Positions 1,749-60,437 of a stretch of DNA of 64,000 bases are shown one piece after another (the stretch's first letter is position 1; each line of letters starts with the position of its first letter). The notes beneath the pieces were generated by a model, which was given only the letters and a program-made list of their open reading frames with translations, searched no databases and was not told the DNA's origin. The position numbers were made by a program, and so were the translations under genes. Source of the stretch: Candidatus Dormiibacterota bacterium (GTDB lineage Bacteria; Acidobacteriota; Terriglobia; Terriglobales; Acidobacteriaceae); assembly GCA_035566655.1 (NCBI GenBank), contig DATMQT010000102.1, positions 4,188 to 68,187 of the forward strand, written 5' to 3'.

Positions 1749-2588
1749 TTAGGCTGCCGCTTGTTTGCGTTGCTGGATGAATCCGAGCAGATCGGCATTG
1801 ATCTGGTCCGCGTTGGTTGTAGGCATTCCGTGCGGAAACCCCGGATACACCTTGAGCGTCGCACCCTTCACCAGCTTCGAGGATTGCAACGCCGCCGCAC
1901 CGATGGGCACGATCTGATCATCGTCGCCGTGAAGGATAAGAGTGGGCACGTCGAACTTCTTGAGATCCTCAGTGAAGTCCGTCTCGGAGAAAGCCTTAAT
2001 GCAGTCGTAACCCGCCTTCACTCCGCCCATCATCCCCTGGAGCCACCACTTGTCCCGGATGCCTTCCGATATCTTGGCGCCCGGCCGGTTATAGCCGTAG
2101 AACGGAAGAGTGATGTCCCGGTAAAACTGTGGCCGATTTTTCGTATATTGGGCTCGCAGGTCGTCGAACACCTCGATCGGCGCGCCCGCAGGATTCTTGT
2201 CGGTCTTTACCATCAGCGGCGGAACCGCGCTGATGAGAACGGCCATGGCGACCCGCTTTGAGCCGTGCCGTCCGATGTATCTCGCGACTTCTCCGCCGCC
2301 GGTGGAGTGGCCCACGTGGATCGCGTCCTTCAGATCAAGCTTTTCCGTGAGGGCGGCGAGATCGTCTGCGTACGTGTCCATGTCATTCCCATCCCAGGTC
2401 TGGGTGGAACGGCCATGACCTCGCCGGTCAGCCGCTATGACTCGATAGCCGCGCTGGCCGAAGAACATCATCTGTCCGTCCCAGTCGTCCGCGGTGAGCG
2501 GCCAGCCGTGACTGAACACTATGGGCTGTCCCTTGCCCCAGTCTTTGTAGTAAATCTGCGTGCCGTCTTTGGTGGTAAACGTGTTCAT
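1749..2588 (-). CDS. alpha/beta hydrolase (non-haem haloperoxidase / arylesterase-like)
   Basis: Start taken at ATG 2588 ([18 protein letters not shown]), preceded by GGAGGA. Motifs HGWP and GHSTGGGE (nucleophile elbow), plus C-terminal HG. The longer track ORF (to 2810) runs through a tRNA gene and is rejected. Confidence 0.88.
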
Positions 2589-2704
2589 AGGTGTTCCTCC
2601 TTCAGGTTGGCGTTCGGTGGATGTTGAGGCTGCGGCCTTAGAAGCGCCGAGCGCGCCGCTGAGGGGCAGCACGGAAACTGGTTCACACAGCTCAAGGAGA
2701 TCGA

Positions 2705-2779
2705 TGGTGGGCGCTATAGGATTCGAACCTATGACTTCCACCGTGTGAAGATGGCACTCTACCGCTGAGTTAAGCGCCC
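2705..2779 (-). tRNA. tRNA-Val (anticodon CAC)
   Basis: 75-nt cloverleaf folded by hand: GGGCGCT acceptor, anticodon stem CCATC/GGTGG, loop TTCACAC, T-arm ATAGG-TTCGAAT-CCTAT, encoded CCA. Confidence 0.9.
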
Positions 2780-2962
2780 ACTTTGATGCGGTAAGTTGAT
2801 CATTATACACAAGTTCCGGACTAGGATTCTTGCTCGTCGCCGCCCTCCATCGTGCAGGACAGGCTATGGGAATTTGGGGAAACGAAAGATTTGGTTTGCC
2901 GGCTCGGCCGCTAACGGGTAGGCAGAACCTGACCGATGGCTCCGTTAAGGAGCGATGGGCAG

Positions 2963-4974: not shown

Positions 4975-5682
4975 ATGCGGCGGGCAAATTTCATGACGGG
5001 ATGGGTGGCCACGGCTGTGCTGTGGGCAGCGACCGTTGTGGTGTCTCTGTCTACCTGCCTGGCGCAGCCCGGCACATACCCCTCCGTGCAGGCACGGCAG
5101 TCATCGCCGAGTCAAAATCACCCGAATCAAAGTCATCCGAATCAGAGTCATCCGAATCAGAGTCCTCCGAATCAGAGTCGTCCAAATCAGAATCATCAGC
5201 AGCCGCCGAACCCTGGACCAGGACATGCCGGCGACTGGCTGCGCCGCTACAAGAATCTGCCGCCGGGCGAGCAGGAACGCGCGCTCCAGAGGGATCCCGC
5301 ATTCCGCCACTTGTCTCCGGCGCAGCAGCAACAGTTGCGGCAACGGCTGCAGCATTTCTCAGGGCTGCCACCGCAGCAGCAGCAGCGCGTGCTGAATCGC
5401 ATGGAAACCTGGGAACATCTGACGCCGGGGCAGAAGGAGCAGGCCCGTCAGGTTCACGGCCAGTTACAGCAACTTCCTCCCGAGAGGCAGGCCATGGTGA
5501 AAACCGCGGTGCACCATCTGAGCGCGATGCCTCCCGAACAACGGGAACAGATTATCAATTCTGAGCGGTTTAAGGGCATGTTCTCGCCGCAGGAGCGTGA
5601 AATCATGCGTGGAGCTTCGAGGTTGCCGCTCGCGCCACCGGAGAATGGCAAGCCCGGAGAAACGCCGGCGCCCGAACAGTAG
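4975..5682 (+). CDS. DUF3106-like Gln/Pro-rich secreted protein (third gene of the ECF sigma/anti-sigma operon)
   Basis: Signal-like N-terminus and repeated helical motifs (LSPAQQQQLRQRL, LPPQQQQRVLNRM, LTPGQKEQARQV, MPPEQREQIINSERFK), as in DUF3106 proteins. Confidence 0.7.
   Translation: MRRANFMTGWVATAVLWAATVVVSLSTCLAQPGTYPSVQARQSSPSQNHPNQSHPNQSHPNQSPPNQSRPNQNHQQPPNPGPGHAGDWLRRYKNLPPGEQERALQRDPAFRHLSPAQQQQLRQRLQHFSGLPPQQQQRVLNRMETWEHLTPGQKEQARQVHGQLQQLPPERQAMVKTAVHHLSAMPPEQREQIINSERFKGMFSPQEREIMRGASRLPLAPPENGKPGETPAPEQ
5110..5199 (+). repeat. 6 x 15-nt in-frame tandem repeat (pentapeptide SQNHP/NQSHP/NQSHP/NQSPP/NQSRP/NQNHQ)
   Basis: Units aatcaRagtcatccg read directly from the sequence, inside the DUF3106-like CDS. 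Confidence 0.9.
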
Positions 5683-6529: not shown

Positions 6530-6572
6530 GAGTGCAGTTCTCGTTTCTCGGCTTCTCGTTTCCAGGATTCAT

Positions 6573-9500
6573 TCAGTGAAAATCGTGCGAAACCGTCTCA
6601 GCTTTAGTGACGAACAGTGGCTGCACGCGTTCCGCTTTGACCGAGATCACGTTGTCCTGATTTTGCAGAATTCCTTCGATGGCCAGAAACCGCTCTGAGG
6701 CCAGCAGCAGGCGGTGGCGGTGAAAAAGATCAGGCGTGATGATCGCGTTAGCCACTCCGGTTTCATCTTCCAGACTGACAAACACGAAACCTTTCGCGGT
6801 CCCGGGACGCTGGCGGGTAATGACGCAACCTCCGATGCGAAGACGCTTGCCATTGGGCAAGTCGCGGAGTTCGCTGGCGCGGCGAATGCCCATGGCCTTG
6901 AGCCATTCGCGACGGTAGGCCATGGGATGCGGGCCGACGGTGAGGCCAGTGCCGTGGAAGTCGGCAACCAGCCGCTCTTCGTGGTTCATGGGTTGAAGCG
7001 GCGAAGGCGAATCGGGCTCCGGCAACTGTTCCAGCAGCGGCCCGGAACCGCGGACGGCACGTTCCACTTGCCAGAGCGCGTCGCGGCGGTGGAACTTCGA
7101 GTCCCGAGTCTCGAGTCCCAAGTCCCGAGTAAAACTTTTGTCATTCCAACCCCCGAGCGAATGCGAGGGGCTGAGGAATCTCGGGACTCGGGACTCGGGA
7201 CTCGCCACTGCATTCAGCGCTCCGATCTCCGCCAGTGTAGTGAGTTCGTCCTTGCGCAGTTCAGAAACGCGGCGGGTGAGATCGTGAATAGAACTGAACG
7301 GAGCAAGCATGCGCTCACGTACCAGAGCCTGAGCAGCTTCCTCGCGCAGCCCACGAACGTAACGCAACCCCACACGCAGCGCTGTCCCGCCGGCAGTACT
7401 GGTTTTACTGGCCACTGGCCACTGACCACTGACCACTGCTTCTAAACTGCAATTCCACTCCGACCGCATCACGTCCACGGGCAGCATTTTCAATCCATGA
7501 CGCTGCGCATCCTTGGTGATGGTCGCCGGAGAATAAAATCCCATGGGCTGGTTGTTGAGCAGGGCGGCGGTAAACGCGGCCAGGTAATGGCATTTCAAAA
7601 ACGCGCTGGCATAAGCGATGAGAGCGAAGCTGGCGGCGTGCGATTCAGGAAATCCATAGAGAGCAAACGAAGTAATCGAGAGAATAATTTTCTCCTGCGC
7701 CTCCTGGGGAATTCCATTCTGCGTCATGCCGGCGCGCAACTTGGCTTCGATTTCCTTCATGCGTGCCTGCGAGCGCTTGAGGCCCATGGCGCGGCGCAGG
7801 TCTTCCGCTTCGCCGCCGGTGAAGTTGGCAGCGATCATGGCCAGACGAAGCAGTTGTTCCTGAAAAAGCGGCACGCCGAGCGTGCGTTTAAGCACCGGTT
7901 CTAGCGAAGGATGCGGATACGTTACCTCTTCTCTTCCCTGGCGGCGTTGCAAAAAAGGGTTGACCATCTGGCCGACGATCGGCCCCGGCCGGATAATCGC
8001 GACCTGCACCACGATGTCATAAAAATGTTTCGGACGCAGGCGCGGCAGGCACGACATCTGCGCGCGGCTTTCCACCTGGAACAAACCCACGGTGTCGGCC
8101 TGCTGCAGCGCGGAATAGACCGCGGGATCATCCTGCGGAAGATGCGCCAGATCAACCTCTTCGTGATAATGCTCGCGAATGAGTTCGATGGAATCCTTGA
8201 GCACGGCCATCATTCCCAGGCCGAGCAGGTCGACTTTGATGATGCCCATGTCGGCGCAATCTTCTTTGTCCCACTGCACCACGACGCGGCCGGGCATGGA
8301 AGCGGGTTCGAGCGGAACGACCGAATCGAGTTGTCCCTGGCAGATGACCATGCCCCCGGAGTGCTGGCCGAGATGGCGCGGCATGTCCTGCACGGCGAGG
8401 CACAGCTCGTAATACTTGCGCAGGCGCGGATGTTTGAGGTCGAGCCCGGCATCGCGGAAGCGGCGGTCGAGCGCGTCGTTCTCGTCGCGGAATTCCCAGG
8501 TAGCGACTGCGGCGGAAATTTTGCCGAGCGTTTCCGGATCGAGGCCTAGAGCCTTGCCCATTTCGCGCGCCGCCATGCGGTTGCGATAAGTAATGACGTT
8601 CGCCGTCATGGCCGCGCCGCGCTCGCCATAGCGCCGGTAAACATATTGAATAACTTTTTCGCGTTCGTCGCCGCTGGGCAGGTCGAGATCGATGTCGGGC
8701 CATTCACTGCGCTCCTCAGAAAGAAAACGCTCAAAGAGAAGCTCCATGCTGACGGGATCGACGGCCGTGATGCCGAGCGAATAACAGACGGCACTGTTGG
8801 CGGCCGAGCCGCGTCCCTGCAGCAGAATGTTTTGCTCGCGGCAGAAGCGGACCAGGTCCCACACGATGAGAAAATATCCCTCAAGTTTTAGTTTTCCGAT
8901 GAGTGCGAGTTCACGCTCAATCTGGCGCCGGGCGCGGGTTTGCATGTCAGACGCAGCGCGCCCATAACGCTGCCGAAAACCTTCCCATGCACGCTCGCGC
9001 AGGAAACAGTTCATGGTTTCGCCTTCGGGAACAGGATAACGGGGAAACTCGTAGCCGAGGTCGTTAAGCGTAAATTCCAGGCGCGAAGAAAGTTCCGAGG
9101 TATTGCTGATGGCCTCAGGAAGGTCGGCGAAGAGCTGCTGCATTTCTTTTGATGATTTCAGGTGGCGCTCGGAGTTGCGCGTTAATAAACGTCCGGCTGT
9201 TGACAAGGTACGGTGATGACGGATGGCAGTAAATGCGTCGCAGAGTTCGCGATCTTTCGCGGCGGCGTAGCATGCGCCGTTGGTTGCAAGCAGAGGGAGA
9301 TTAAGTGAGCCAGCGATTGCGATGGCGGCGCGATTGCGAGTTTCTTCTTCGCGATGAAAATGCCGCTGCAATTCGATGTACACATTGCCACGGCCAAAGA
9401 TTCCAACTAATCGCTCGACTTGCTGGCGAGCTTCTTCGATGCCGCTATGTTGCAAAGCAGCGGCCAGCGGCCCATCCGCGCCGCCGGTTAGACAGATTAG

Positions 9501-9860
9501 GCCGTCCGCATGTTCTTCCAATTGTTCTTGGCAAATTGCACCTTCGCCTTTTTCCGCGCGCAACTTCATTTTGGTGATCAGGCGGCAGAGATTTTGATAG
9601 CCGGCGCGGGAGGAAACGAGGAGAGGAAGACGATATTTTTGTGACGAAGAAAGATTAGCTCTGACTTCCGCGCCGATGTGCGCCTTGATCCCAAGTTTCT
9701 TTGCTGCCAGGTGAAAGCGCGGCGCACCGTAGACCCCGTCGGTATCGAGCAATGCCATGGCGGGCATATTGAGCCGGGCGCAGGCTGTCATCAGATCCTC
9801 AGGCAGGGAAGAACCTTCGAGGAAGCTGAAAGCGGAACGGGTGTGAAGCTCGGTGTACAT
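6573..9860 (-). CDS. dnaE2: error-prone DNA polymerase III alpha-like subunit DnaE2 (ImuC)
   Basis: 1095 aa with N-terminal PHP motif MYTELHTRSAFSFLEGSS. Length and synteny with imuA-imuB fit. Carries two in-frame repeat insertions (see findings). Confidence 0.95.
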   Translation of the reverse strand: MYTELHTRSAFSFLEGSSLPEDLMTACARLNMPAMALLDTDGVYGAPRFHLAAKKLGIKAHIGAEVRANLSSSQKYRLPLLVSSRAGYQNLCRLITKMKLRAEKGEGAICQEQLEEHADGLICLTGGADGPLAAALQHSGIEEARQQVERLVGIFGRGNVYIELQRHFHREEETRNRAAIAIAGSLNLPLLATNGACYAAAKDRELCDAFTAIRHHRTLSTAGRLLTRNSERHLKSSKEMQQLFADLPEAISNTSELSSRLEFTLNDLGYEFPRYPVPEGETMNCFLRERAWEGFRQRYGRAASDMQTRARRQIERELALIGKLKLEGYFLIVWDLVRFCREQNILLQGRGSAANSAVCYSLGITAVDPVSMELLFERFLSEERSEWPDIDLDLPSGDEREKVIQYVYRRYGERGAAMTANVITYRNRMAAREMGKALGLDPETLGKISAAVATWEFRDENDALDRRFRDAGLDLKHPRLRKYYELCLAVQDMPRHLGQHSGGMVICQGQLDSVVPLEPASMPGRVVVQWDKEDCADMGIIKVDLLGLGMMAVLKDSIELIREHYHEEVDLAHLPQDDPAVYSALQQADTVGLFQVESRAQMSCLPRLRPKHFYDIVVQVAIIRPGPIVGQMVNPFLQRRQGREEVTYPHPSLEPVLKRTLGVPLFQEQLLRLAMIAANFTGGEAEDLRRAMGLKRSQARMKEIEAKLRAGMTQNGIPQEAQEKIILSITSFALYGFPESHAASFALIAYASAFLKCHYLAAFTAALLNNQPMGFYSPATITKDAQRHGLKMLPVDVMRSEWNCSLEAVVSGQWPVASKTSTAGGTALRVGLRYVRGLREEAAQALVRERMLAPFSSIHDLTRRVSELRKDELTTLAEIGALNAVASPESRVPRFLSPSHSLGGWNDKSFTRDLGLETRDSKFHRRDALWQVERAVRGSGPLLEQLPEPDSPSPLQPMNHEERLVADFHGTGLTVGPHPMAYRREWLKAMGIRRASELRDLPNGKRLRIGGCVITRQRPGTAKGFVFVSLEDETGVANAIITPDLFHRHRLLLASERFLAIEGILQNQDNVISVKAERVQPLFVTKAETVSHDFH
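7098..7204. repeat. composite insertion inside dnaE2: heptamer arms (cgagtcc x4 / ctcggga x3) around a TGTCATTCC...GGAATC element
   Basis: Left arm 7098-7130, right arm 7180-7204 (its reverse complement), nested dispersed element 7139-7180. Translated in-frame as ...SPESRVPRFLSPSHSLGGWNDKSFTRDLGLETRDSKF... Confidence 0.85.
7408..7439. repeat. tandem heptamer array (ctggcca ctggcca ctgacca ctgacca) inside dnaE2
   Basis: Same CAGTGRY word as the intergenic hairpins at 9861 and 18848. Translated as VSGQWPVAS. Confidence 0.8.
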
Positions 9861-9934
9861 CAGTGATCAGTGGTCAGTGGCCAGGAAAAGCGGAAGATTT
9901 TAACTAGCCACTGATCACTGGCCACTGGCCACTG
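9861..9934. repeat. heptamer-word hairpin (CAGTGRY) filling the imuB-dnaE2 intercistronic gap
   Basis: Left arm 9861-9884 cagtgatcagtggtcagtggccag, loop of 22 nt, right arm 9907-9934. About 19/24 complementary by hand alignment. TTTT follows on the plus strand. Confidence 0.85.
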
Positions 9935-9937
9935 TTT

Positions 9938-11515
9938 TCAGTCATAACTTCCTTCCACATACCAGCCTCCGCCGAGCAGATTGTGCACAAGGCGGTAGAG
10001 CGCGACACTGTCTGCATTTTGCAAAGCGATGTCCCACTCATCGCGCGCCCAGGCCTCCCGTTCCCACCAATCGCCGGAACTGCGCCAGGGGCCTGCCTTC
10101 CAGAGCACACTGCCCTGTACTTCTTTTTTCTTCGTACAGACCACGCGCGCCAGTTCCCCATTTTCCAGAGTCACGGTGACCCGCAGCGGCGGACGGAACA
10201 TGCGCAGGGCTGTGACTGATTGTTCTTCGCCGGAACTTTTTTGCCGATTTACTTTTGAATCTGCCTCAGGCATGAAGCGCCGCATGCGGAAGGCTTCAAC
10301 CCGATGCGTGTCCAGCAACTCCAGCGAGCCCACGCGGGCTTCGCCGACCAGTCCGGCAATGCGCGCCAGCGTGAGTTCCAGTTTTTCAGGTTCCGGCGAC
10401 GGAGGCTGAAACAGCCCGCCCTGAGCCGATCGCGGCCGCGCCGGTTCCGCCGCGAGATGAATTTTCAGGATGGGCGCGCCCGGCGGATGCGCGTTCAAAT
10501 CCAATTGCAACAGCTTAAGAAAAAGTTTGGCATCAAGCATGGGAATAGGCAGACGAAGCGTTCGATGAAACCGCTTTGGCCGGGATTGCTGATCGTTGAT
10601 TGCTGATTGTTGATTGAACGACGAGAAGCTTTCGAGTTCCAGCGTGAGCCGCAACTCCTGCGTGTTCAGAGCACGCGAAGCCAATCGTGCACAAATCTGC
10701 TCGAGCAAACGATTCAGCAGAAAGGCCAACGGCTCCAGCAACACAATGGGATATTCCAACTCGACGGCTTCTTCAAATACCGCCGGCGCTTCCACAGGAA
10801 CCAGCGTGCGGGAAGCCGCGCCCCGCGCCAGTTGCTGCAAGCGCAAGCCTTCCTGTCCCAGACGCTCGCTCAGCGCAACTTCCGGCAGCGCAGCCAGAGC
10901 GCGCAGATTGCGAATGCCCCAGCGCTCGAGAGTTGCCAGCAGGCGCGCTGATTCTTTCTGCTCATCATTGTCCTCACTTGTCCCGGTAAACAAAACTTCT
11001 ACCGGCAACGATCCCAGAGACTCGCCTTCTTCCCCCGGCGGAATCACGGTCACACCTGAAATGCCGTGGGCGGCGAGCGCGGCGGCATCGGGATACGAAG
11101 CAACGGCAACGTTCACATCAAGTCCAAGGTCTGCGGCACGGCGGAAAATGTCACAAGCAATTTCCGGCAGCGCACCAAAAAGAGATTCCATACCGGTCAG
11201 GTCAAGAATTGCCGTGTCGGCTGCGGCATCTTCCACGCACGGCGAGAAGGACTGCGCACAATCCAGAAGGGCGGCGTGTGCCGCGGATTCCTGTAGCAAA
11301 GAACGCGGACGCAGCGTCAATTCCGAACACAGTTCCGCCTGGGCTTTCGTCATACCGGGTGCGATGCCCACGCGGCCTGCGCTCTCATTCACGGCAAAAA
11401 CTTTTTCCAGCGGAGGCTTGCCTTCGAAAATGGCCACGGCCCGCGCGCGCAACTCCGGCTCGACGCGAAAAACCGCGGCCACGGGAAAATTCGGCACGAA
11501 GATGCAGGCAAACAT
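9938..11515 (-). CDS. imuB: ImuB, Y-family polymerase-like protein of the imuA-imuB-dnaE2 cassette
   Basis: N-terminus MFACIFVPNFPVAAVFRVEPELR... is typical of ImuB. Position between imuA and dnaE2. Start taken at ATG 11515. Confidence 0.9.
   Translation of the reverse strand: MFACIFVPNFPVAAVFRVEPELRARAVAIFEGKPPLEKVFAVNESAGRVGIAPGMTKAQAELCSELTLRPRSLLQESAAHAALLDCAQSFSPCVEDAAADTAILDLTGMESLFGALPEIACDIFRRAADLGLDVNVAVASYPDAAALAAHGISGVTVIPPGEEGESLGSLPVEVLFTGTSEDNDEQKESARLLATLERWGIRNLRALAALPEVALSERLGQEGLRLQQLARGAASRTLVPVEAPAVFEEAVELEYPIVLLEPLAFLLNRLLEQICARLASRALNTQELRLTLELESFSSFNQQSAINDQQSRPKRFHRTLRLPIPMLDAKLFLKLLQLDLNAHPPGAPILKIHLAAEPARPRSAQGGLFQPPSPEPEKLELTLARIAGLVGEARVGSLELLDTHRVEAFRMRRFMPEADSKVNRQKSSGEEQSVTALRMFRPPLRVTVTLENGELARVVCTKKKEVQGSVLWKAGPWRSSGDWWEREAWARDEWDIALQNADSVALYRLVHNLLGGGWYVEGSYD
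10584..10618. repeat. tandem heptamer array (gattgct gatcgtt gattgct gattgtt gattgaa) inside imuB
   Basis: Read directly. Translated as NQQSAINDQQS. Confidence 0.75.
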
Positions 11516-11537
11516 GAAGCAGTACCCAATAGAGCCG

Positions 11538-11622
11538 GGTTTCAAAGTTTCAAGGTTTCAAGGTTTCAAAAAATAATTTGCTCAACTTTGAAACCTTGAG
11601 ACATTGAAACTTTGAAACCTTG
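11538..11622. repeat. octamer-word hairpin (GTTTCAAR) at the imuA-imuB junction
   Basis: Left arm 11538-11570, right arm 11586-11622 (its reverse complement). The right arm forms the last codons of imuA (KTRFQSFNVSRFQS). TTTTTT follows on the plus strand. Confidence 0.85.
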
Positions 11623-12448
11623 TTTTTTCAGCGGAGCGAACCGGCTTGCGCTCCAGCCGGGAGCGCACCAACTCCGCCGTGATTTCCATTTCGGTTAGCA
11701 ATTGCGCGTGTGTGGGCGGCGCCGGGAATTGAGAGTTCGTGGATTCTTTTATCCACTTTCCTTGCGGCCCCAGCTTGATTAATAAGGAAGAGCAACTCCC
11801 CGCGATGGACTGCCGCTCAATCGCGAGCAGCACGGTGGGCGTATGCTCCACCGCGCGGCGGAAACGAAACCACATAGTCAACGGGATATGGCGCGCCGTC
11901 TGCGGCGGCAGATCGCCGAGATCGAGGGCGATCAATCCAAAGCCTCCGCTTTCGAGCAGCAGGTCCGCCGCGCGCAGTAGTTGTTCCAAGCACTTCTGCG
12001 GAGAACTTTCTCCGCAGCGCACCCACAGCAACCGCTCCAACTCGACCCCTGCGGCTGTGGCGGACTGCGGATCGAGAGTATCGCTGGCGTCCACCACCAC
12101 GCAGCATTCTCCGCGTCGTGTGGCCGCGGCCAGCGCGGCCAGCAGCAACGTGGTGCGCCCGGAAGAGGCCGGACCGCAAATTTCTGTCAGGCAGCCGCGC
12201 GGCAGGCCTCCAGTAAGCGCATCCATCTCGGCAATGCCGCTGGAGACCATTTCTGGCGCAGGCCGAACCGCCAACCGCGAAGCTGGGGTAACGCCTGCCA
12301 GTCTCGCATCTTTGAATGTCCCAGGAATGAACACCCCTGTAGAAATGGCAGGGACAACTCGTTGCGGCGGCCGCCCCTCGGCCACATCTTCATCAAAAGC
12401 AAAAGGGCGGCCCTGGGCCGCCGAAGTGGAAACCACTGCGGAAGACAT
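11582..12448 (-). CDS. imuA: ImuA, RecA/SulA-like protein of the mutagenesis cassette
   Basis: Start at ATG 12448 (MSSAVVS...). Degenerate P-loop region GGLPRGCLTEICGPASSGRTTLLLAALA. The upstream 153 codons of the track ORF are Arg/Trp-rich, overlap the end of the peptidase gene, and are rejected. Confidence 0.85.
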   Translation of the reverse strand: MSSAVVSTSAAQGRPFAFDEDVAEGRPPQRVVPAISTGVFIPGTFKDARLAGVTPASRLAVRPAPEMVSSGIAEMDALTGGLPRGCLTEICGPASSGRTTLLLAALAAATRRGECCVVVDASDTLDPQSATAAGVELERLLWVRCGESSPQKCLEQLLRAADLLLESGGFGLIALDLGDLPPQTARHIPLTMWFRFRRAVEHTPTVLLAIERQSIAGSCSSLLIKLGPQGKWIKESTNSQFPAPPTHAQLLTEMEITAELVRSRLERKPVRSAEKTRFQSFNVSRFQS

Positions 12449-12527
12449 AGATTCCTCGGAAAATTTCAGGGAACACCGGCGGTTGGAAGCCACCGGAGGC
12501 AATTTCGCTTTTTCTTCGCCTTTTAGA

Positions 12528-12556
12528 ATTGTGCGCCCGGCGGCTGAGATTGTCAA
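12528..12556 (-). promoter_or_regulatory. candidate sigma-70 promoter for imuA (TTGACA-17 nt-CACAAT)
   Basis: On the minus strand, TTGACA (12556-12551) and CACAAT (12533-12528), about 80 nt upstream of the imuA ATG. Pattern match only. Confidence 0.3.
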
Positions 12557-12568
12557 GCCAAGAAGGGA

Positions 12569-12592
12569 GGGCCAGCCCAAAAAGGCTGGCCC
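12569..12592 (-). terminator. hairpin downstream of the M13 peptidase gene
   Basis: gggccagcc / ggctggccc stem with a 6-nt loop, 38 nt after the stop codon. The minus-strand sense is followed by a pyrimidine-rich tract, not a clean U-run. Confidence 0.45.
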
Positions 12593-12629
12593 ATTAAGCG
12601 AGATCCTTGGTAAGCACGATCGTCTTCGC

Positions 12630-14759
12630 TCACCACACTCTGCAAGCGTTCGCCCGGACCATCTTCTGACCAGCCTTGCAGCCAAAAGCCTGGGCAAACT
12701 CCGGCATGTTTGAAACCACGTTGTCGATGCGGAAGATGGGCAGCGAGTGCGGGTTGGTAGTGACCACCATGCGCGCCACCTCCGGACGCACGGCCGAGCA
12801 CCACGAGTAAGCATAAGAAAGGAAAAAGCGCTGGCGATAAGTCCAGCCGTCCGGACCTTTGTCCTCGAGCGATTTCCCCTGCTTCTTAAGATCGGCCTCC
12901 AACGCATTCAGCGCGAGATGGAGACCGCCGTTGTCGGCCGTATCCTCACCCTGAGTGAGCAATCCATTCTGTTTGACCCCGGGCCCGGCGTCGGGAACGT
13001 CCTGCGTGTACTCGTCAGAGATGCACTTGCCGCGTTCGTCGTATTGCTTCGCGTCGTCGGCCGTCCACCAGTCGCGCAGGTTGCCGTGAGCATCGAACTT
13101 GCGCCCCTGATCGTCGAAGCCGTGCGTGAGTTCGTGACCAATGACCATGCCGATGGCGCCGTAATTCACAGAGTCATCCATGCCCTTCTCGAAGAACGGC
13201 GGCTGCAGAATGCCAGCAGGAAAATTGATGGTGTTCAGTTGCGGATCGTAGTAAGCATTGATGGTCGGCGGCGTCATGGTCCACTCGCCGCGATCCACCG
13301 GCTTGCCAATCTTGGCAATCCAGCGTTCGAACTCGAACGACGAGGCCTGCCCCTCATTGGCGAGATAACTTTCGCGTGTGATGTTTACGGTGGAATAATC
13401 GCGCCAATGCGCAGGATAGCCGATCTTGTCTTCGATTCCCTTCAGCTTGACGATGGCTTGTGCCTTGGTGGCAGGCGTCATCCAACTGACGCTGTTAATG
13501 TCATTCTGCATCGCCTGCTCGATGGCATGCACCATTTCGATGGTGCGCGCGCGGCTCTCCGGTGGAAAAGCGCGGTCCACGTAAGCCTGGCCGAGCGCCT
13601 CGCCCAGGTCGCGGTCGGCCGCCCGAGTGCAGCGCCGCCAGCGCGGAAGCTGCTCCTCCTGCCCGGCCAGCGTGTGCGCGAAGAAATCGAAATTCTCGTC
13701 GACCATCGCTTTCGTCAAGAAGGGCGCGGCCCGGTGAATCGCCTGCCAGCGCATGTAAGTCTTCCAATGCTCCAGCGGATGTTCCACCAGCAATTTATCT
13801 TCGGCGCGGAAGAACTCCGGCGCACTGACGATGTAATGTTCGCTGGCCGGGGCCTTCACCGCCTTCAGATAAACGTCCCAGTCGATGGAGGGCGTAAGCG
13901 CGCGAATCTGCGCCAGGCTCATCTTGTTGTTGATGTTCTTTGGATCGCGGCGCTTGACGTTATCCATCTGTGGTTTGGCCAGCGCAGTTTCCAGTTCAAT
14001 TACGATGCCCGCGTCGGCAGCCGCTTGCGCATCCGTCTCCCCGGCCAGCACAAACATCTTCTGCACGTGCGCGCGAAATTTCTTGAGAGTCTCCACGGAC
14101 TTTTCATCAGTTTTGATGTAGTAGTCGCGATTGGGCAGGCTCAGTCCGCCCTGATCGATCTGTGCCACCACTTTGGAAGCGTCGTCATAATCTTGCCCGC
14201 CAGCAAAACCGAAAAACGGGGCGTTCGTCTGATTGTCGTTCCCCTCCCATGCGCCGGGAAACATGTGATGGAGATGGGCGATCTCGAGCGTGATCTCTTT
14301 CTTGGATTTGAGCGCGGCGATGCGGTCTAGTTCCGGCTGTAGAGGCTTCAGTCCGGCGGCTTCGATGCCGCCTTCGTCCATGCAGGCCGCCCAGTAGTCG
14401 CCGATCTTCTGCTGCACCGCGCTGCGTTTCGGGTCGTTCTTGCTGCTCGCTTCCAGAGTCTCCCGCAGCGCGTTTTCGTTCCACAGTTCGAGGCCACTTC
14501 CCGTGCTCCAGAAGACCTGGTCGGCTGGAATCGGATTCGCCTTGAGCCACTTGTTGCAGGAGTATTTGTAGAAGTCATCGCAAGGGCTCAGCGCCGGGTC
14601 GACAAGGTTGGGATCAAAATGTTCGAGCTGGGGAGCTTTGGTTTCCCCGGCGGCTCCGGCAGTTGCAGCTGAAGAGGAATTGAAGTTTGCATTTTGCCCG
14701 AACACCGCCACGGGCAAAGTCAGAAACAGAAAACACAGGATGACTCTGGAATTAAACAT
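12630..14759 (-). CDS. M13 family metallopeptidase (PepO / endothelin-converting-enzyme-like), secreted
   Basis: HELTHGFD zinc motif, GEDTADNGG (ExxxD) motif, C-terminal CRVW. Start taken at ATG 14759 (MFNSRVILCFLFLTLPVAVFG signal). Confidence 0.9.
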   Translation of the reverse strand: MFNSRVILCFLFLTLPVAVFGQNANFNSSSAATAGAAGETKAPQLEHFDPNLVDPALSPCDDFYKYSCNKWLKANPIPADQVFWSTGSGLELWNENALRETLEASSKNDPKRSAVQQKIGDYWAACMDEGGIEAAGLKPLQPELDRIAALKSKKEITLEIAHLHHMFPGAWEGNDNQTNAPFFGFAGGQDYDDASKVVAQIDQGGLSLPNRDYYIKTDEKSVETLKKFRAHVQKMFVLAGETDAQAAADAGIVIELETALAKPQMDNVKRRDPKNINNKMSLAQIRALTPSIDWDVYLKAVKAPASEHYIVSAPEFFRAEDKLLVEHPLEHWKTYMRWQAIHRAAPFLTKAMVDENFDFFAHTLAGQEEQLPRWRRCTRAADRDLGEALGQAYVDRAFPPESRARTIEMVHAIEQAMQNDINSVSWMTPATKAQAIVKLKGIEDKIGYPAHWRDYSTVNITRESYLANEGQASSFEFERWIAKIGKPVDRGEWTMTPPTINAYYDPQLNTINFPAGILQPPFFEKGMDDSVNYGAIGMVIGHELTHGFDDQGRKFDAHGNLRDWWTADDAKQYDERGKCISDEYTQDVPDAGPGVKQNGLLTQGEDTADNGGLHLALNALEADLKKQGKSLEDKGPDGWTYRQRFFLSYAYSWCSAVRPEVARMVVTTNPHSLPIFRIDNVVSNMPEFAQAFGCKAGQKMVRANACRVW

Positions 14760-17845: not shown

Positions 17846-17889
17846 GAGGATTGACGCTTAGGACGCGATTAGACAGGATAAATCAAGGG

Positions 17890-17970
17890 GCAGTTGCCGG
17901 TTGCCAGCAAAACCAAACGTATGTGAGGGAGACTAGAACTGGCAACTGCCAACTGGCGGCTGGCGACTGC
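17890..17970. repeat. heptamer-word hairpin (CAGTTGC/CGGTTGC) between the regulator gene and ppc
   Basis: Left arm 17890-17908, 30-nt loop, right arm 17939-17970, which abuts the regulator stop codon. Confidence 0.75.
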
Positions 17971-18847: not shown

Positions 18848-18945
18848 GCAGTGGCCAGTGGTCAGTGATCAGTGGCCAGAGAAAACCGTACCTATGGTCG
18901 CAGGTGGGACTGACTGACCACTGACCACTAACCACTGACCACTGC
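18848..18945. repeat. heptamer-word hairpin (CAGTGRY) between phoU and the response-regulator gene
   Basis: Left arm 18848-18879, 30-nt loop, right arm 18910-18945. About 27/32 complementary by hand alignment. TTTT follows on the plus strand. Confidence 0.9.
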
Positions 18946-23531: not shown

Positions 23532-23566
23532 CCTAAGACCTACAACCTAAGACCTGAGACCCGAAT
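23532..23566. repeat. tandem heptamer array (cctaaga cctacaa cctaaga cctgaga cccgaat)
   Basis: Fills the 41-nt gap between the convergent MATE and phosphatase stop codons. Confidence 0.8.
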
Positions 23567-25977: not shown

Positions 25978-26056
25978 CCAGTTCTTAGTTCTCAGTTCCC
26001 AGTTCGAAGCCACCCAAGGTTTGACCGAGAACTGAGAACTGGGAACTGAGAACTGG
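25978..26056. repeat. heptamer-word hairpin (AGTTCYY) in a divergent 5' region
   Basis: Left arm 25978-26005, 21-nt loop, right arm 26027-26056. The right arm ends 6 nt before ATG 26063. Confidence 0.85.
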
Positions 26057-29378: not shown

Positions 29379-29452
29379 GCAGTGGTCAATGGCCAGTGGC
29401 CGGTAAAAACGCGTTCGAACCTTTAGGACTGGTCACCGATCACCGGCCACGG
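29379..29452. repeat. degenerate heptamer-word hairpin (CAGTGGY / CGGTGAY)
   Basis: Left arm 29379-29403, right arm 29429-29452, only about 15/24 complementary. Fills the gap between the proline dehydrogenase stop and the next ATG. Confidence 0.6.
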
Positions 29453-33948: not shown

Positions 33949-33968
33949 CAGTGGTCAGTGATCAGTGC
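33949..33968. repeat. short heptamer array (cagtggt cagtgat cagtgc)
   Basis: Lies in the convergent junction and overlaps the ggt stop codon. Confidence 0.6.
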
Positions 33969-38495: not shown

Positions 38496-38984
38496 ATGAA
38501 AACAAGGACTCCCCTTCTTGTCCTCGCGATCCTTGTCCCCGCGATCTTTGTTCTGGCGATCTTTGTCCTGGCGAGTTGGCCACTCGATCTTGCCACTGCG
38601 CAAGACAAGCCCGACACGACCTCAGCGAAGATTCTGGCGTTGGAGGACAAATGGAACGCGGCTTACAAGCGCGGCGACATTGCCACCATGGAATCTTTGC
38701 TGGCCGATAATTTCATTATCACGCTGGAGGACGGCAGCACCTTCAGCAAGTCTGGCTACCTCGCACACAACGGCGACCCGACCGTCCACATTGAGACGAC
38801 GGAAGGGTCGGGTCTCAGCGTCCGCATGCACGGCAACACCGCCGTCGTGACCGGTGCCTATCACGAAAAAGGCACCTCCAAGGGAAAGCCTTACGAATAC
38901 CACGACCGTTTCACCGATGTCTGGATGAACCTGAACGGGAAGTGGCAGGTGATCGTTTCGCACTACAGCATTCCTTCCAATTGA
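38496..38984 (+). CDS. NTF2-like (DUF4440/SnoaL-like) secreted protein
   Basis: ILALEDKWNAAYKRGDIATMESLLADNF... and ...WQVIVSHYS are typical of DUF4440. Start at ATG 38496. The hydrophobic leader contains a 15-nt tandem repeat. Confidence 0.75.
   Translation: MKTRTPLLVLAILVPAIFVLAIFVLASWPLDLATAQDKPDTTSAKILALEDKWNAAYKRGDIATMESLLADNFIITLEDGSTFSKSGYLAHNGDPTVHIETTEGSGLSVRMHGNTAVVTGAYHEKGTSKGKPYEYHDRFTDVWMNLNGKWQVIVSHYSIPSN
38517..38576. repeat. 4 x 15-nt in-frame tandem repeat inside the signal/TM segment
   Basis: cttgtcctcgcgatc / cttgtccccgcgatc / tttgttctggcgatc / tttgtcctggcgagt, encoding LVLAI LVPAI FVLAI FVLAS. Confidence 0.85.
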
Positions 38985-42787: not shown

Positions 42788-42862
42788 TGGTAGCGCTAAC
42801 GGGAATCGAACCCGTGTTTGAAGATTGAGAATCTTCCGTCCTAACCCCTAGACGATAGCGCC
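42788..42862 (-). tRNA. tRNA-Glu (anticodon CUC)
   Basis: 75-nt cloverleaf folded by hand: GGCGCTA acceptor (G-U first pair), D-arm GTCT-AGGGGTTA-GGAC, anticodon loop TTCTCAA, T-arm ACGGG-TTCGATT-CCCGT, encoded CCA. Confidence 0.88.
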
Positions 42863-48229: not shown

Positions 48230-49828
48230 ATGAACACCCGGATGGATTTCCGTTTCATCCACCGCTCAAGATTCTTCCTCGCAATCATGATGTTGTTCCT
48301 CGCCGGAGCAGTGCGAGCCAACGCACAAGCCAGCTGTACCGGCGTTTCCAACGACACGCAGGGCGCGATCACATGGAAGCCGGCGTGGTGCGAGGAATTT
48401 AACGCGACAACGGCAGGTCCGCCCGACACCACGGTGTGGAGCTTCGATCTCGGTAACAGCGGCTTCGGCAACAATGAATTGGAAACCTATTGCGGACCTC
48501 CCGGATATCCGCAAAACCCGAGTACCTGCCCCACCACTTTCTCGACGGCGACCTCAAACGCGTACCTTGACGGCGGTGGCTCTAATGGACACCTCGTCAT
48601 TCAGGCCATAAACAATGGTACAACTTGGTTTTCGGGTCGCATGAATACCTCGGGCTTGCCAGGTTTTCAGTACGGCCGCATCGAAGCCAGCATCCAGCTA
48701 CCCGACACCACCAACCAGGGTCTGTGGCCCGCGTTTTGGTCCCTCGGTAGCAACATCAGTACAGTTAATTGGCCAACCTGCGGCGAAGTCGATTTCATGG
48801 AGGTTTGGTCCCCTCAAGCTCCGATAGTAGGACCAGGTCCCGCAGGGAACAGGACAACACTCCACACGGCTGCAACTATGGGAAACGGTCTACAACCGAA
48901 TGGCTTTTTCCCGTTCCCCTCAGGCCAAGCCAACAACACGGCGTTCCATACCTATGGCACGATTTGGTCTGCCAACATGATGCAGTTCTACATCGACAAC
49001 CCGTTGCAGCCATACTACATCGCGACGACCAGCGACCTTCCCTCCGGAGATACGTGGGCTTTCAATGCGCCACTTTTCCTGCTCACAAATATAGCCGTCG
49101 GAGGCACCTTGGGCGGAACACCTAGCGGATCAACCCCCAATCCCGGAGTCATGATGCTGGACTACGTTCGGCAATATCAACCATCTACGACTATTACCGC
49201 CCCCACGCTGGGAACCTCTGCGATCACCGTGACAGCCGGAGCGACGTCTGGCAACAGCAGCACGCTTACTCCCGTCCTCGCCGCTAACACAGGGTATGTC
49301 TATTTCTCTTGCAGCACCAACGCACCGAAAGCGTCGTGCGCGATCAGTACGAATGACCCGCTGAACAAGTTTGTCGTCAGCTCTAGCGCCACTCCCGCGG
49401 AGACCGTCACCGTCACGGTCACCACCACGGTGAACACTTCTACGGCGGGCACGACGACGGCGCAGGCAATTCCGCCTGTCTTCTTCCATCTCCCGCTTTC
49501 CTTCTTCAATCCCCCGCTTGCCTTCGTCAGTTTGAAGACGCCCGTCTGGCTGCTCATAGCATTCGCAGCGTTTCTGCTGGCGATTGTGGCCGCTGCCGGA
49601 CGCATGCGAGTCCGCGCCTGCCTCTACGGCTGCATTCTGGCCATGGGATTGATTCTTACAGGCGCCGCAAGCTGCGGTGGCGGCAGCAGCAACACTCGGG
49701 CGCTCAGCGGTGGCACGCCTCCCGGCAGCTACACGGTGACGGTTTACGCCTTCACTGAAAGCAACGTCGGCACCGGTGCCAACAGCACCGCCGACGCCAA
49801 CGTAGCCATCCCACTGACGGTGAACTAA
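48230..49828 (+). CDS. glycoside hydrolase family 16 (laminarinase-like) with an Ig-like C-terminal region
   Basis: Catalytic EVDFME (ExDxxE) at nt 48785-48802, plus GLWPAFW and TYGTIWS motifs. Signal peptide. Unusual hydrophobic insert near the C-terminus. Confidence 0.85.
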   Translation: MNTRMDFRFIHRSRFFLAIMMLFLAGAVRANAQASCTGVSNDTQGAITWKPAWCEEFNATTAGPPDTTVWSFDLGNSGFGNNELETYCGPPGYPQNPSTCPTTFSTATSNAYLDGGGSNGHLVIQAINNGTTWFSGRMNTSGLPGFQYGRIEASIQLPDTTNQGLWPAFWSLGSNISTVNWPTCGEVDFMEVWSPQAPIVGPGPAGNRTTLHTAATMGNGLQPNGFFPFPSGQANNTAFHTYGTIWSANMMQFYIDNPLQPYYIATTSDLPSGDTWAFNAPLFLLTNIAVGGTLGGTPSGSTPNPGVMMLDYVRQYQPSTTITAPTLGTSAITVTAGATSGNSSTLTPVLAANTGYVYFSCSTNAPKASCAISTNDPLNKFVVSSSATPAETVTVTVTTTVNTSTAGTTTAQAIPPVFFHLPLSFFNPPLAFVSLKTPVWLLIAFAAFLLAIVAAAGRMRVRACLYGCILAMGLILTGAASCGGGSSNTRALSGGTPPGSYTVTVYAFTESNVGTGANSTADANVAIPLTVN

Positions 49829-51144: not shown

Positions 51145-51300
51145 GAAGCTCTTAGCCATTAGCTCTTAGCTTCATGCCTCATTGCATCGAAGTTGTTTTT
51201 TCTTGCTTGTGCAAGTCTTGTGCTTGTTCGCGTTCCAACTTTGAGTCTGGCTGGCTGTAGTTCGGTTGGAGCTAAGAGCTAAAGGCTAAAAGCTACAAGC
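51145..51300. repeat. heptamer-word hairpin (AGCTCTT/AGCCATT) with a long (about 95-nt) interior
   Basis: cttagccattagctcttagc (51151-51170) against gctaagagctaaaggctaaa (51271-51290), 18/20 complementary. Confidence 0.8.
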
Positions 51301-51335
51301 TGAAGTCCAGTGACATCGGTAACTCCGCCGTCGCG

Positions 51336-52997: not shown

Positions 52998-53020
52998 GCT
53001 AGAAGCTAGGAGCTAGAAGC
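52998..53020. repeat. tandem heptamer array (gctagaa gctagga gctagaa gc)
   Basis: Lies directly upstream of the ychF ATG. Its AGGAG could act as the Shine-Dalgarno sequence. Confidence 0.7.
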
Positions 53021-53026
53021 TTCCTT

Positions 53027-54112: not shown

Positions 54113-54584
54113 CAGTACCCAGTAGCTAGTACCCAGAAAACAGCGCCTTGGATAAACTGGAATCCCGACACGGAACCAAGAAGCTGAAATCAGGGATTGT
54201 GGTCAGGGCCGGGCAACGTTTGGTTGTAAGCTGGAGCGATGGCGCAGCACTACAAAGATTTAATTGCTTGGCAGAGAGCGATGGACCTAGTCAGCGTCCT
54301 CTACGATGCAACCGACGATTTTCCCAAGCGCGAGACTTACAGTCTGACCGATCGAATGCGTCGGGCGGCCGTCTCGATCCCGAGCAACATAGCTGAAGGG
54401 CAAGCACACTTCAGTCGTCGTGAGTTTCGTCACTTTCTTCGCCACTCCTGTGGATCGCTGGCCGAACTCGGAACTCAGATACGCATGAAGTGGGCCGAAT
54501 TCTGAGCGGCCTCCTCAATTCTCTTAAAGAACAAATCCCCGCGGCGTGAGAGATTTGACTGGGTACTGGGTACTCGGTACTGTC
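54111..54584. mobile_element. 474-nt insert bounded by 26-nt imperfect inverted repeats (AGTACCC words) carrying a decayed four-helix-bundle gene
   Basis: gacagtacccagtagctagtacccag (54111-54136) against ctgggtactgggtactcggtactgtc (54559-54584), about 22/26 complementary. Calling it mobile is an inference. Confidence 0.5.
54239..54549 (+). pseudogene. four-helix-bundle protein (23S rRNA intervening-sequence protein / Avd family), internally deleted and frameshifted
   Basis: The 88-aa ORF (54239-54505) has YKDLIAWQRAMDLV...RRAAVSIPSNIAEGQA...GSLAEL.TQ. The expected C-terminus (EVGRILSGLLNSLKEQ) is readable in another frame up to TGA 54547-54549. Confidence 0.7.
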
Positions 54585-60407: not shown

Positions 60408-60437
60408 GTACCTAGTACCCACTACCCAGTACCCAGC
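60408..60437. repeat. tandem heptamer array (gtaccta gtaccca ctaccca gtaccca)
   Basis: Lies in a convergent junction and overlaps the last codons of the CPBP gene (LKLGTG). Same AGTACCC word as the arms at 54111/54559. Confidence 0.75.

Follow-up and report, generated by a model that had tools for sequence, protein, structure and literature searches.

Hairpins with tandem heptamer arms in a Terriglobales chromosome and their apparent relation to S23p cassettes

Period-7 arrays and hairpins in the window

The spacer between the PhoU and response-regulator (RR) genes of an acidobacterial (Terriglobales) chromosome contains a hairpin whose two arms are tandem arrays of a 7-nt word and which carries no ORF. 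The 64-kb stretch of DNA that was analyzed, hereafter the window, includes many loci of the same architecture (Table 1). Most of the arrays lie in inverted pairs, flush with stop or start codons, and three of the loci lie in frame inside coding sequence, two in dnaE2 and one in imuB.

Tandem Repeats Finder confirmed the arrays that had been noticed in a sequence-only reading of the window, with the 3' array of the locus at 54111 reported as 54558-54584. The arrays at 5687 and 55326, which had also been listed, consist of only about 2 degenerate units. The window contains 19 period-7 arrays of at least 3 copies, against a mean of 0.19 per 64 kb in 100 dinucleotide-preserving shuffles, and no other period is enriched to that degree. 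Similarly, 1.76 Mb of the window plus relatives contains 373 period-7 arrays, against 78 of period 8 and at most 26 of any other period.

The PhoU-RR hairpin folds on the minus strand, which is the gene-sense strand, as an uninterrupted 32-bp helix (-69.8 kcal/mol, z = -9.2). On the plus strand it folds at -57.2 kcal/mol with one C.A mismatch per unit, which corresponds to the complementarity of about 27/32 estimated by hand in the sequence-only reading. The mean over 72 hairpins is -47 kcal/mol.

Table 1. Heptamer arrays, hairpins and the S23p cassette of the window (L numbers designate relatives)
Position	Strand	Feature	Remarks
6538-6562	.	Weak (TTCTCGT)3.4 array between the methyltransferase gene and the dnaE2 stop	Membership uncertain
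7098-7204	-	Hairpin inside the dnaE2 ORF, in frame; arms (GAGTCCC)n	Loop is a copy of a second dispersed palindrome (GTCATTCC...GAGGAAT); L020 and L033 keep the loop at this site, but every unit of both arms is SAGTACC instead
7407-7438	-	Single array in dnaE2, (CAGTGGY)4.6 in gene sense, in frame	Encodes VSGQWPVAS; in the first hypervariable insert region
9860-9934	-	Hairpin filling the whole imuB-dnaE2 spacer; word CAGTGRY	From 3 nt after the imuB stop to the dnaE2 ATG; -40.5 kcal/mol, z = -7.3
10584-10616	-	Single array (GATTGCT/GATCGTT)4.7 inside imuB, in frame	GATTG word family
11538-11622	-	Hairpin with 8-nt units (GTTTCAAR) at the imuA-imuB junction	Orthologues with the same word in L016, L017 and L020
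17890-17970	-	ORF-less hairpin in the RR-PEPcase spacer; word CAGTTGC	S23p gene between heptamer arrays in this spacer in relatives
18848-18945	-	ORF-less hairpin in the PhoU-RR spacer; plus-strand arms 18849-18879, (CAGTGRY)4.4, and 18913-18944, (ACTGACC)4.6; 33-nt loop	Starts 3 nt after the PhoU stop codon
20723-20773	+	Period-14 array (ACCTGGT TCTGAAG)3.6 at the 3' end of the PEMT gene	Possible relative made of two alternating heptamers; membership uncertain
23532-23561	.	Single (CCTAAGA)4.3 array between convergent genes
25979-26055	.	Hairpin (CAGTTCY)3.9 / (GAGAACT)4.1 between divergent genes
29379-29452	+	Degenerate CAGTGGY hairpin filling the proline-dehydrogenase-amidohydrolase spacer	-31.3 kcal/mol, z = -2.2; weak
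33949-33967	+	Single (CAGTGRT)2.7 array between convergent genes
51147-51301	+	Hairpin (AGCTCTT)3.6 / (AGCTAAA)4.6 with a 98-nt loop, between the M48 peptidase gene and MoxR	Orthologous arrays in L143 and L148
52323-52348	+	Single (CAGTGRY)3.7 array 3 nt after the MoxR stop	No partner arm present
52998-53021	+	Single (GCTAGAA)3.4 array just upstream of ychF	Pairs only with one CTTCTAGCC unit at the far end of the spacer
54111-54584	+	S23p cassette; 26-nt inverted heptamer arms GACAGTACCCAGTAGCTAGTACCCAG (54111-54136) and CTGGGTACTGGGTACTCGGTACTGTC (54559-54584)	Encloses a decayed gene; site orthologous to intact cassettes between YchF and Zip in many relatives
54239-54505	+	Truncated S23p / 23S_rRNA_IVP four-helix-bundle gene (88 aa), a pseudogene	PF05635, E = 5.8e-27, profile positions 1-78 of 106; 61-nt internal deletion relative to intact orthologues (L143, L139, L141 and L148)
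60407-60436	+	Single (AGTACCC)4.3 array at and overlapping the ends of two convergent genes

Words, polarity and variation of the arrays

The sequence-only reading held that only the period and the palindromic layout are shared among loci, and in part this is supported. The loci form a real family that is defined more by architecture than by a shared consensus, and words differ between loci as well as between species at the same site. The words, however, come from a limited, related vocabulary. In the window plus relatives CAGTTCT occurs 72 times, GATTGTT 33, CAGTGGC 26, CAGTGGT 22 and CAGTACC 17, and 55% of words contain CAGT, although GATTGTT, CCTAAGA and the 8-mers lack it. The 5' arm is of the CAGT type in 62 of 64 oriented pairs. 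Arm length has its mode at 31-33 nt (126 of 433 arrays) and drops sharply above 34 nt. The GAAAA string at loop starts, which had been taken to indicate a directional family, is one half of a dyad-symmetric feature, with AAAA after the 5' arm and TTTT before the 3' arm. Among 49 co-directional intergenic hairpins AAAA occurs in 13 and TTTT in 25, and the reversed arrangement in only 1-2; the feature is not fixed to one chromosome strand.

Slippage is directly visible. A relative with about 98% nucleotide identity and an identical PhoU differs by 11 nt (7 + 4) in one arm of the PhoU-RR hairpin, and one arm in L033 has been homogenized to a mutant unit, CAGCTCT, without any change in its partner. 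The two arms of a hairpin often differ greatly in copy number (8.9/7.4, 9.6/3.6, 11.4/4.7). By contrast, the very fast arm turnover proposed from the sequence alone is not supported, because at 98-99.5% identity the arrays carry no more substitutions than genes do (1.3% against 2.3%), and a single array indel was found in about 10 kb.

These observations bear on a purely mutational origin, in which arrays arise locally by polymerase slippage with 7 nt as a favored register, become palindromic and stay complementary through intrastrand template switching (quasi-palindrome correction), and are joined by S23p genes only as unrelated passengers that insert into, or are tolerated in, hairpin loops. 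The single-base unit change present in all units of both arms at the dnaE2 site, in the window against L020 and L033, fits templated correction; loops are site-specific, and heptanucleotide excess has been ascribed to slippage in the literature (PMC4679880; PMC4692102). Nevertheless, slippage alone predicts neither the polarity, nor the conserved 4-nt core with free spacers, nor the length mode, and it does not explain the association with S23p genes described below. We consider this alternative unlikely.

Mobilization in trans by a conventional transposase, for example a RAYT/Y1 or another DDE enzyme encoded elsewhere in the genome, appears still less likely. The hairpins are dispersed, intergenic and bounded by terminal inverted repeats, and their presence is polymorphic between species at orthologous spacers, with close species having no hairpin at all. 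Paralogous copies with the same arms and the same loop family flank the RR gene in L005, L007 and L016, and at the dnaE2 hotspot quite different elements occupy the same site in different species. However, copies share no consensus. Clustering of 66 loops linked almost only orthologous sites, the arms use more than 60 different words, and an nhmmer profile of one loop family found copies at just two neighboring spacers and none in the window. The arms begin with (G)CAGT or AGT, and there is no GTAG/CGTC tag. No target-site duplications were seen in flanks read by eye, without a formal search, and Pfam annotation of about 49 window genes revealed no transposase, RAYT or Y1 domain. The only gene found repeatedly inside the elements is S23p.

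Association with S23p genes

The locus at 54111-54584, described in the sequence-only reading as a hairpin, does not represent a hairpin with a long loop but a cassette that encloses a gene. Complete cassettes are found in relatives in the same spacers that hold ORF-less hairpins in the window. In L094, L096, L099 and L103 the PhoU-RR spacer carries an intact S23p gene between (CAGTTCT)n and (AGAACTG)n, in the arrangement PhoU-(CAGTTCT)n-S23p-(CTGAGAA)n-RR, and in L097 the cassette is inverted at that site. The RR-PEPcase spacer holds an intact gene in L017, L019, L023, L091 and L093 and a frameshifted copy in L034.

Of 71 metagenomic S23p loci with enough flank, 53 have a period-7 array on both sides, and in 46 of these the two arrays are complementary. 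A further 17 have an array on one side and 1 has none. The background of 0.39 arrays per kb predicts about 2% with both. The loci fall into at least 9 flank contexts, and because many of the 80 metagenomic loci are orthologous sites the counts are not independent. The word follows the protein clade: the MAQH[FY]KDL clade goes with AGTACCN and the MG[EQ]SY[KR]DL clade with AGTTCTC, and both clades occur in the same YchF-Zip site, each with its own word.

The layout recurs across at least six bacterial phyla or classes. All 8 further lineages that were looked up, chosen before their flanks had been seen, display it. In Xanthomonas campestris, X. citri and Dokdonella the gene lies between accB and accC and is flanked by (GGGAATC)n / (GATTCCC)n, whereas Methylomirabilis, a Chloroflexi MAG, a deltaproteobacterium (between rplJ and rplL), an Actinobacteria MAG and a Binatia MAG all have (TCAGCNN)n and its complement. 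One homologue search used a consensus-like probe, of which only the database proteins retrieved were considered.

A series of decay states is also observed. The ORF-less loop of L017 in the PhoU-RR spacer is 22/25 identical to the Shine-Dalgarno-proximal leader of the S23p gene in L094 (z = 11.8), and related loops reach z = 5.7 and 3.4. The window's own loops at 18848 (z = -0.2), 29379 and 25978 show no significant similarity to cassette interiors, and the loop at 17890 is marginal (p about 0.05). The word of the PhoU-RR hairpin, CAGTGGY, was not seen flanking any S23p gene in our sample, and its membership therefore rests on position, architecture and transitive family resemblance.

Based on these results, the hairpins are best read as ORF-less members of a family of palindromic cassettes that resemble rRNA intervening sequences (IVS), an interpretation to which we assign a probability of about 0.6. 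The complete form is about 0.45-0.7 kb and has a 5' array (CAGTNNN)n, a short leader, a gene of about 120 aa for an S23p / 23S_rRNA_IVP four-helix-bundle protein (PF05635, TIGR02436, Avd-like), and a 3' array (NNNACTG)n. Cassettes sit in intergenic spacers, flush with the neighboring stop and start codons and often inside operons. The gene decays through frameshifts and internal deletions, and what remains is a 70-110 nt hairpin whose arms are the two arrays, while unit slippage and homogenization of variant units make the word drift with the CAGT core kept. Causality could nevertheless run the other way, with S23p genes inserting into pre-existing hairpins, and no S23p-independent route is known for hairpins to enter dnaE2 in frame.

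When transcribed, the arms form a 25-35 bp RNA helix, the kind of helix that RNase III cuts in rRNA IVSs, and the hairpins therefore probably act as processing or stability sites in polycistronic mRNAs; RNase III cleavage is inferred only. In co-directional intergenic hairpins, G.U pairs number 172 in the sense fold against 105 in the antisense fold, with 36 hairpins having more in the sense fold and 9 fewer (p = 6.6e-5), and the direction is the same in all 5 site classes. This bias could come from transcription-associated C-to-T mutation rather than selection. Hairpins inside genes show the opposite bias (2 against 12), and a preceding comparison of sense and antisense minimum free energies was not significant (38 against 34).

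It is conceivable, though doubtful, that each hairpin is instead an individually selected element of its host operon, such as an intrinsic or bidirectional terminator, an mRNA 3'-end stabilizer or a translational-coupling hairpin, with an incidental heptamer make-up. The position of the hairpins immediately after stop codons and up to start codons, the sense-strand G.U excess, the A-rich 5' flank and CTTTTGA 3' flank common at two sites, and the occlusion of the dnaE2 start region by the imuB-dnaE2 hairpin are compatible with this view. By contrast, the same elements lie in frame inside dnaE2 and imuB, are absent from the same spacers in close species, and occur inside an operon that must be read through (imuA-imuB-dnaE2). 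U-tracts are inconsistent and often absent on the sense side, the PhoU-RR hairpin being followed by CCUUCCGAA in gene sense. A promoter/terminator pattern scan was not enriched (26 found against 21 expected), and Rfam at gathering thresholds matched only two tRNAs in the window and nothing at any hairpin.

We further propose that the pentameric S23p ring binds the array. An arm of modal length carries five CAGU cores at 7-nt spacing with free 3-nt spacers, an arrangement like that of TRAP binding its repeated triplets, and the closest solved structure, 2GSC (XCC0516; E = 1.2e-25), is described as a homopentamer (PMC4990558). On this view the protein and the repeats form a co-evolving pair, comparable to RAYT and REP. 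Binding, and any role of S23p in spreading or maintaining the arrays, are inferred only. S23p has no known enzymatic activity and no demonstrated nucleic-acid target, and in Coxiella it is probably not even translated (PMC4990558). Moreover, arrays that flank S23p genes range from 2.4 to 29 units, so the five-core length is a tendency and not a rule.

Relation to described repeats and intervening sequences

The sequence-only reading knew of no described element class with these properties, which is not supported, since heptanucleotide repeats are a known over-represented class (Mrazek 2007, as cited in PMC4679880 and PMC4692102) whose excess has been explained only by a conjecture about polymerase slippage. 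The 23S rRNA IVSs with an S23p ORF of Coxiella burnetii and Leptospira (PMC4990558) have terminal inverted repeats that form a long stem, 28 bp in Coxiella and 26-32 bp here, enclose an S23p / PF05635 gene that tends to decay, and have tandem heptamers in the terminal region. In Coxiella these are GACAGAT x3 at the 5' end with strain-variable copy number, and RNase III cleaves in the stem. The elements described here differ in that they lie between or inside protein genes rather than in helix 25 or 45 of 23S rRNA, are mostly ORF-less, and exist in dozens of copies with many different words. We therefore regard the PhoU-RR hairpin as a derivative of an IVS-like element and not as a full member.

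The GGGAATC arrays of Xanthomonas (Rehm et al. 2015, PMC4692102) are intergenic and mostly about 4 units long, vary in length and sequence between close species, and in 70-75 cases per genome form inverted convergent pairs closer to the end of the upstream ORF than to the downstream ORF. The S23p gene of Xanthomonas (the XCC0516 family) is flanked by exactly this repeat. Xanthomonas has a single G-rich word, which was interpreted as G-quadruplex-forming, and that study makes no link to S23p and reports no association with mobile elements.

The cyanobacterial STRR heptamers (probably CCCCAGT, CAACAGT, TTGGTCA) and the Beggiatoaceae TAACTGA repeats (PMC4679880) are mostly intergenic tandem arrays that abut start codons, with the ACTG-type orientation directly upstream of start codons as in the 3' arms here. 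They are described mainly as direct arrays of a single word or a few words, with one inverted case reported in BOGUAY. The commonest words of our data are not those of STRR1-3, although two of the three STRR words, and TAACTGA, appear to contain the same CAGT/ACTG core. Tentatively, S23p may be the cognate partner of heptanucleotide arrays, each ring reading about five cores spaced 7 nt apart on single-stranded RNA or DNA, and gene plus arrays may form a self-perpetuating cassette whose ORF-less offspring populate intergenic DNA. Such a mechanism could account for the excess of 7-nt repeats in many bacterial phyla, and would unite STRRs, the Xanthomonas and Beggiatoa repeats and rRNA intervening sequences.

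As in REP/REPIN-RAYT systems, short palindromes are dispersed in intergenic DNA, the associated gene is itself flanked by inverted copies of the repeat, and repeat type and gene lineage co-vary. Here, however, the protein is a small four-helix bundle and not an HUH nuclease, and the arms are tandem heptamers rather than a fixed 20-40 nt consensus. The hairpins sit inside operons such as accB-accC, rplJ-rplL and imuB-dnaE2, and inside genes, and therefore bear on gene calling, operon prediction and assembly of soil metagenomes.

Heptamer arrays in the window and its relatives

The window belongs to the chromosome of an acidobacterium of the order Terriglobales. Its PEP carboxylase is at most 84% identical to those of 'Candidatus Sulfotelmatobacter'/Acidobacteriaceae MAGs, and a contig identical over 20.8 kb comes from a metagenome assembly. 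The genes are ordinary housekeeping genes, including an imuA-imuB-dnaE2 cassette, PEP carboxylase, PhoU plus a response regulator (RR), MoxR, YchF and UvrA. No transposase was found among them, and the mobilization of the hairpins by a conventional transposase has no support in the window.

Tandem Repeats Finder recovers the hairpin loci with tandem 7-8 nt words that had been noted in a sequence-only reading. The window contains 19 period-7 arrays of at least 3 copies, against 0.19 expected from 100 dinucleotide shuffles, and no other period is enriched comparably. The hairpin of the PhoU-RR spacer, on which the analysis was focused, folds into an uninterrupted 32-bp helix on the gene-sense (minus) strand (-69.8 kcal/mol, z = -9.2), whereas on the plus strand each unit carries a C.A mismatch. 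The observation is confirmed.

For comparison, 80 orthologous loci from related species and 7 strain-level contigs were retrieved, amounting to 1.76 Mb including the window (these and further loci are designated L followed by a number). Period 7 dominates with 373 arrays, against 78 of period 8 and at most 26 of any other period, and the density varies from 0 to 4.8 per 10 kb between species. The vocabulary is limited and related: CAGTTCT occurs 72 times, GATTGTT 33, CAGTGGC 26, CAGTGGT 22 and CAGTACC 17, and 55% of the words contain CAGT. Adjacent arrays are inverted in 92 cases and direct in 9. In 62 oriented pairs against 2, the 5' arm is of the CAGT type and the 3' arm of the ACTG type, a property that reads the same on both strands and is, therefore, a real asymmetry. 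The arrays abut stop and start codons within a few bases. Loop edges tend to carry AAAA after the 5' arm and TTTT before the 3' arm, and the A-rich GAAAA string that the sequence-only reading had placed at the loop starts is one half of this dyad feature. Array length is not geometric, but displays a mode at 31-33 nt (126 of 433 arrays), which equals four units plus CAGT, or five cores. It drops sharply above 34 nt and has a second mode at 25-27 nt.

Features of the window and of related loci
Location	Coordinates	Feature
Window	2708-2779 and 42791-42862 (minus strand)	Two tRNA genes (Rfam RF00005, 67 and 65 bits)
Window	1749-2810	Long ORF of a hydrolase gene, overlapped by the first tRNA gene
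Window	5107-5197, 38517-38574, 49472-49529	Coding tandem repeats of period 15, 15 and 21
Window	6573-12907 (minus strand)	imuA-imuB-dnaE2 SOS-mutasome cassette
Window	7098-7204	Hairpin inside dnaE2, in frame
Window	7131-7179	Second palindromic element, loop of the dnaE2 hairpin
L017	22650-22697	Second palindromic element
L023	22544-22597	Second palindromic element
Window	7407-7438	Array inside dnaE2, in frame
Window	about 17860-17885 (minus strand)	Conserved motif upstream of the PEP carboxylase gene
Most of L001-L040	about 9960-9985	Conserved motif upstream of the PEP carboxylase gene
Window	54111-54136 and 54559-54584	Heptamer arms enclosing a PF05635 ORF
L005, L007, L016	about 8900-9000 and about 9880-9920	Two hairpins flanking the response-regulator gene
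L017	9480-9500	5' inner region of an S23p cassette
L180	1-62 and 16-52	Second S23p gene and its following array in the Methylomirabilis contig

Arrays inside genes and their tempo of change

One hairpin and one array lie in frame inside dnaE2, in two insert regions that are hypervariable between species. At the second region, different species carry quite different hairpin elements, all of which are stop-free and have lengths that are multiples of three. The window and L020/L033 share the loop at this site; however, every unit of both arms differs by one base, GAGTCCC against SAGTACC. The change is therefore concerted across units and across arms. The loop of the dnaE2 hairpin is itself formed by a second dispersed palindromic element (consensus roughly TTGTCATTCCGAxCCCCGAGCGxxxGCGAGGGGxxGAGGAATCT), which occurs in both orientations at the same site in different species. 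It is found as well in the dnaE2 inserts of L048, L072 and L073 and in intergenic spacers, namely the RR-PEPcase spacers of L018, L049 and L075. In the SOS-mutasome cassette, the two intergenic junctions are each filled completely by a heptamer or octamer hairpin that abuts the stop and start codons, leaving no obvious room for a free ribosome-binding site upstream of dnaE2. The in-frame copies, together with the species that lack the hairpins, are hard to reconcile with individually selected terminators.

Relatives at 98-99.5% identity show no excess of substitutions in the arrays, and a single array indel was found in about 10 kb, corresponding to 11 nt (7 + 4) in one arm of the PhoU-RR hairpin. 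Slippage is real, but the very fast arm turnover considered in the sequence-only reading is not supported. Between species, the arms expand independently, for example 9.6 against 3.6 units, and one arm can also be homogenized to a variant unit without its partner changing, as in L033. In L005, L007 and L016, the two hairpins that flank the response-regulator gene share both arm word and loop family within a genome, which indicates duplication or gene conversion between neighboring elements about 1 kb apart.

Association of the arrays with S23p genes

Gene calls obtained together with a neighboring protein revealed that the apparent long loop of one window hairpin holds a PF05635 (23S_rRNA_IVP) ORF, which has a 61-nt internal deletion compared with intact orthologues. 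A tblastn search of the related loci found the same gene family inside the heptamer hairpin of the RR-PEPcase spacer in L017, L019 and L023, where it is intact. One of these has a 29-unit 5' array. L034 has a frameshifted copy.

A metagenome scan with the L017 protein returned 80 loci. Of the 71 with enough flank, 53 have period-7 arrays on both sides of the gene (46 complementary), 17 on one side and 1 on neither, whereas the background of 0.39 arrays per kb predicts about 2% with both. The loci fall into at least 9 flank contexts, including PhoU-RR, RR-PEPcase and YchF-Zip. In L094, L096, L099 and L103 the full cassette lies in exactly the spacer that holds the PhoU-RR hairpin of the window, with a 5' array that starts 8 nt after the PhoU stop, against 3 nt in the window. 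In L097 the cassette is inverted at that site. The word follows the protein clade and not the site. Some ORF-less loops retain the Shine-Dalgarno-proximal leader of the S23p gene, with 22/25 identity and z = 11.8, although the window's own loops do not reach significance. The motifs GATGTTCAGATGTCACAG and GGATTCACA are conserved about 50-90 nt upstream of the S23p start in cassettes from different genomic contexts (L017, L023 and L091-L107), and GGTTGAC...GGTTTTGCC is found after the stop codon. These may be the cassette's own promoter or binding sites.

The closest solved structure is that of XCC0516 from Xanthomonas campestris (2GSC, E = 1.2e-25), which is described as a homopentameric ring (PMC4990558). 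S23p genes were looked up in eight further lineages, chosen before their flanks had been seen, and all eight are bracketed by inverted heptamer arrays. In X. campestris, X. citri and Dokdonella the gene lies between accB and accC and is flanked by (GGGAATC)n / (GATTCCC)n, the very repeat that Rehm et al. (PMC4692102) described as 186 arrays with 70 inverted pairs, without noting the gene. Methylomirabilis, a Chloroflexi MAG, a deltaproteobacterium, an Actinobacteria MAG and a Binatia MAG have (TCAGCNN)n and its complement. In this TCAGCNN subfamily, the 3' array encodes the C-terminus and stop codon of S23p. Several of the cassettes (L171-L179, L184, L185 and L186) sit between functionally coupled genes of conserved operons: accB|accC in Xanthomonadales, rplJ|rplL in the deltaproteobacterium, the methylmalonyl-CoA mutase subunits in an actinobacterium, and acyl-CoA dehydrogenase|enoyl-CoA hydratase in Binatia. 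In the Methylomirabilis contig (L180), a second S23p gene ends just upstream and is followed by an array with a different word, (CCCCCAA)5.6, so that two cassettes with different words lie about 1 kb apart. The Coxiella 23S rRNA IVS is a published ninth case (PMC4990558), a 428-nt element with terminal inverted repeats forming a 28-bp stem, an S23p ORF, and three GACAGAT repeats whose number varies between strains, which is cut by RNase III in the stem.

The best-supported reading is that the hairpins are ORF-less derivatives of IVS-like S23p cassettes, with arms that evolve by slippage and homogenization and are kept complementary. Pure slippage plus template switching, with S23p as a passenger, remains possible, but it leaves the polarity, the length mode and the covariation of word and clade unexplained. 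It is only inferred that the RNA helices are RNase III substrates, that the S23p pentamer binds five cores per arm, and that the protein helps to spread or maintain the arrays; if the binding hypothesis holds, the finding would have wide reach. IVS/S23p elements and heptanucleotide repeats are both known, whereas no paper connecting S23p with dispersed heptamer arrays was found in the literature library searched.

Strand bias and other sequence features

Folding energies alone show no sense bias. By contrast, a count of wobble pairs in co-directional intergenic hairpins reveals 172 G.U pairs in the sense fold against 105 in the antisense fold. A total of 36 hairpins have more in the sense fold and 9 have fewer (p = 6.6e-5), and the direction is the same in all five site classes. 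This fits a constraint on the transcript, although transcription-associated C-to-T bias would give the same pattern. Hairpins inside genes are reversed.

A strongly conserved motif, CTTTTGATTTATCCTGTC, lies 25-45 nt upstream of the PEP carboxylase start codon in most relatives, whether or not a hairpin precedes it, and could be a promoter, an operator or a leader element. In the RR-PEPcase spacers of L041, L042, L046, L053, L059 and L072, more distant relatives carry a different repeat family, GGCCACGGATTxACACxGATTCACACGGAT ... ATCCGTGAAxATCCGTGGAATCCGTGGC, which is a palindrome with internal 9-10 nt sub-repeats and is sometimes present in 2-3 tandem copies.

The coding tandem repeats of the window have periods that are multiples of three and are unrelated in period to the heptamer family. 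The first lies in the DUF3106 protein gene, and the third falls within the glycosyl hydrolase family 16 ORF. Because the first tRNA gene overlaps the long ORF, the true start of that hydrolase gene must lie downstream of the ORF's first start codon.
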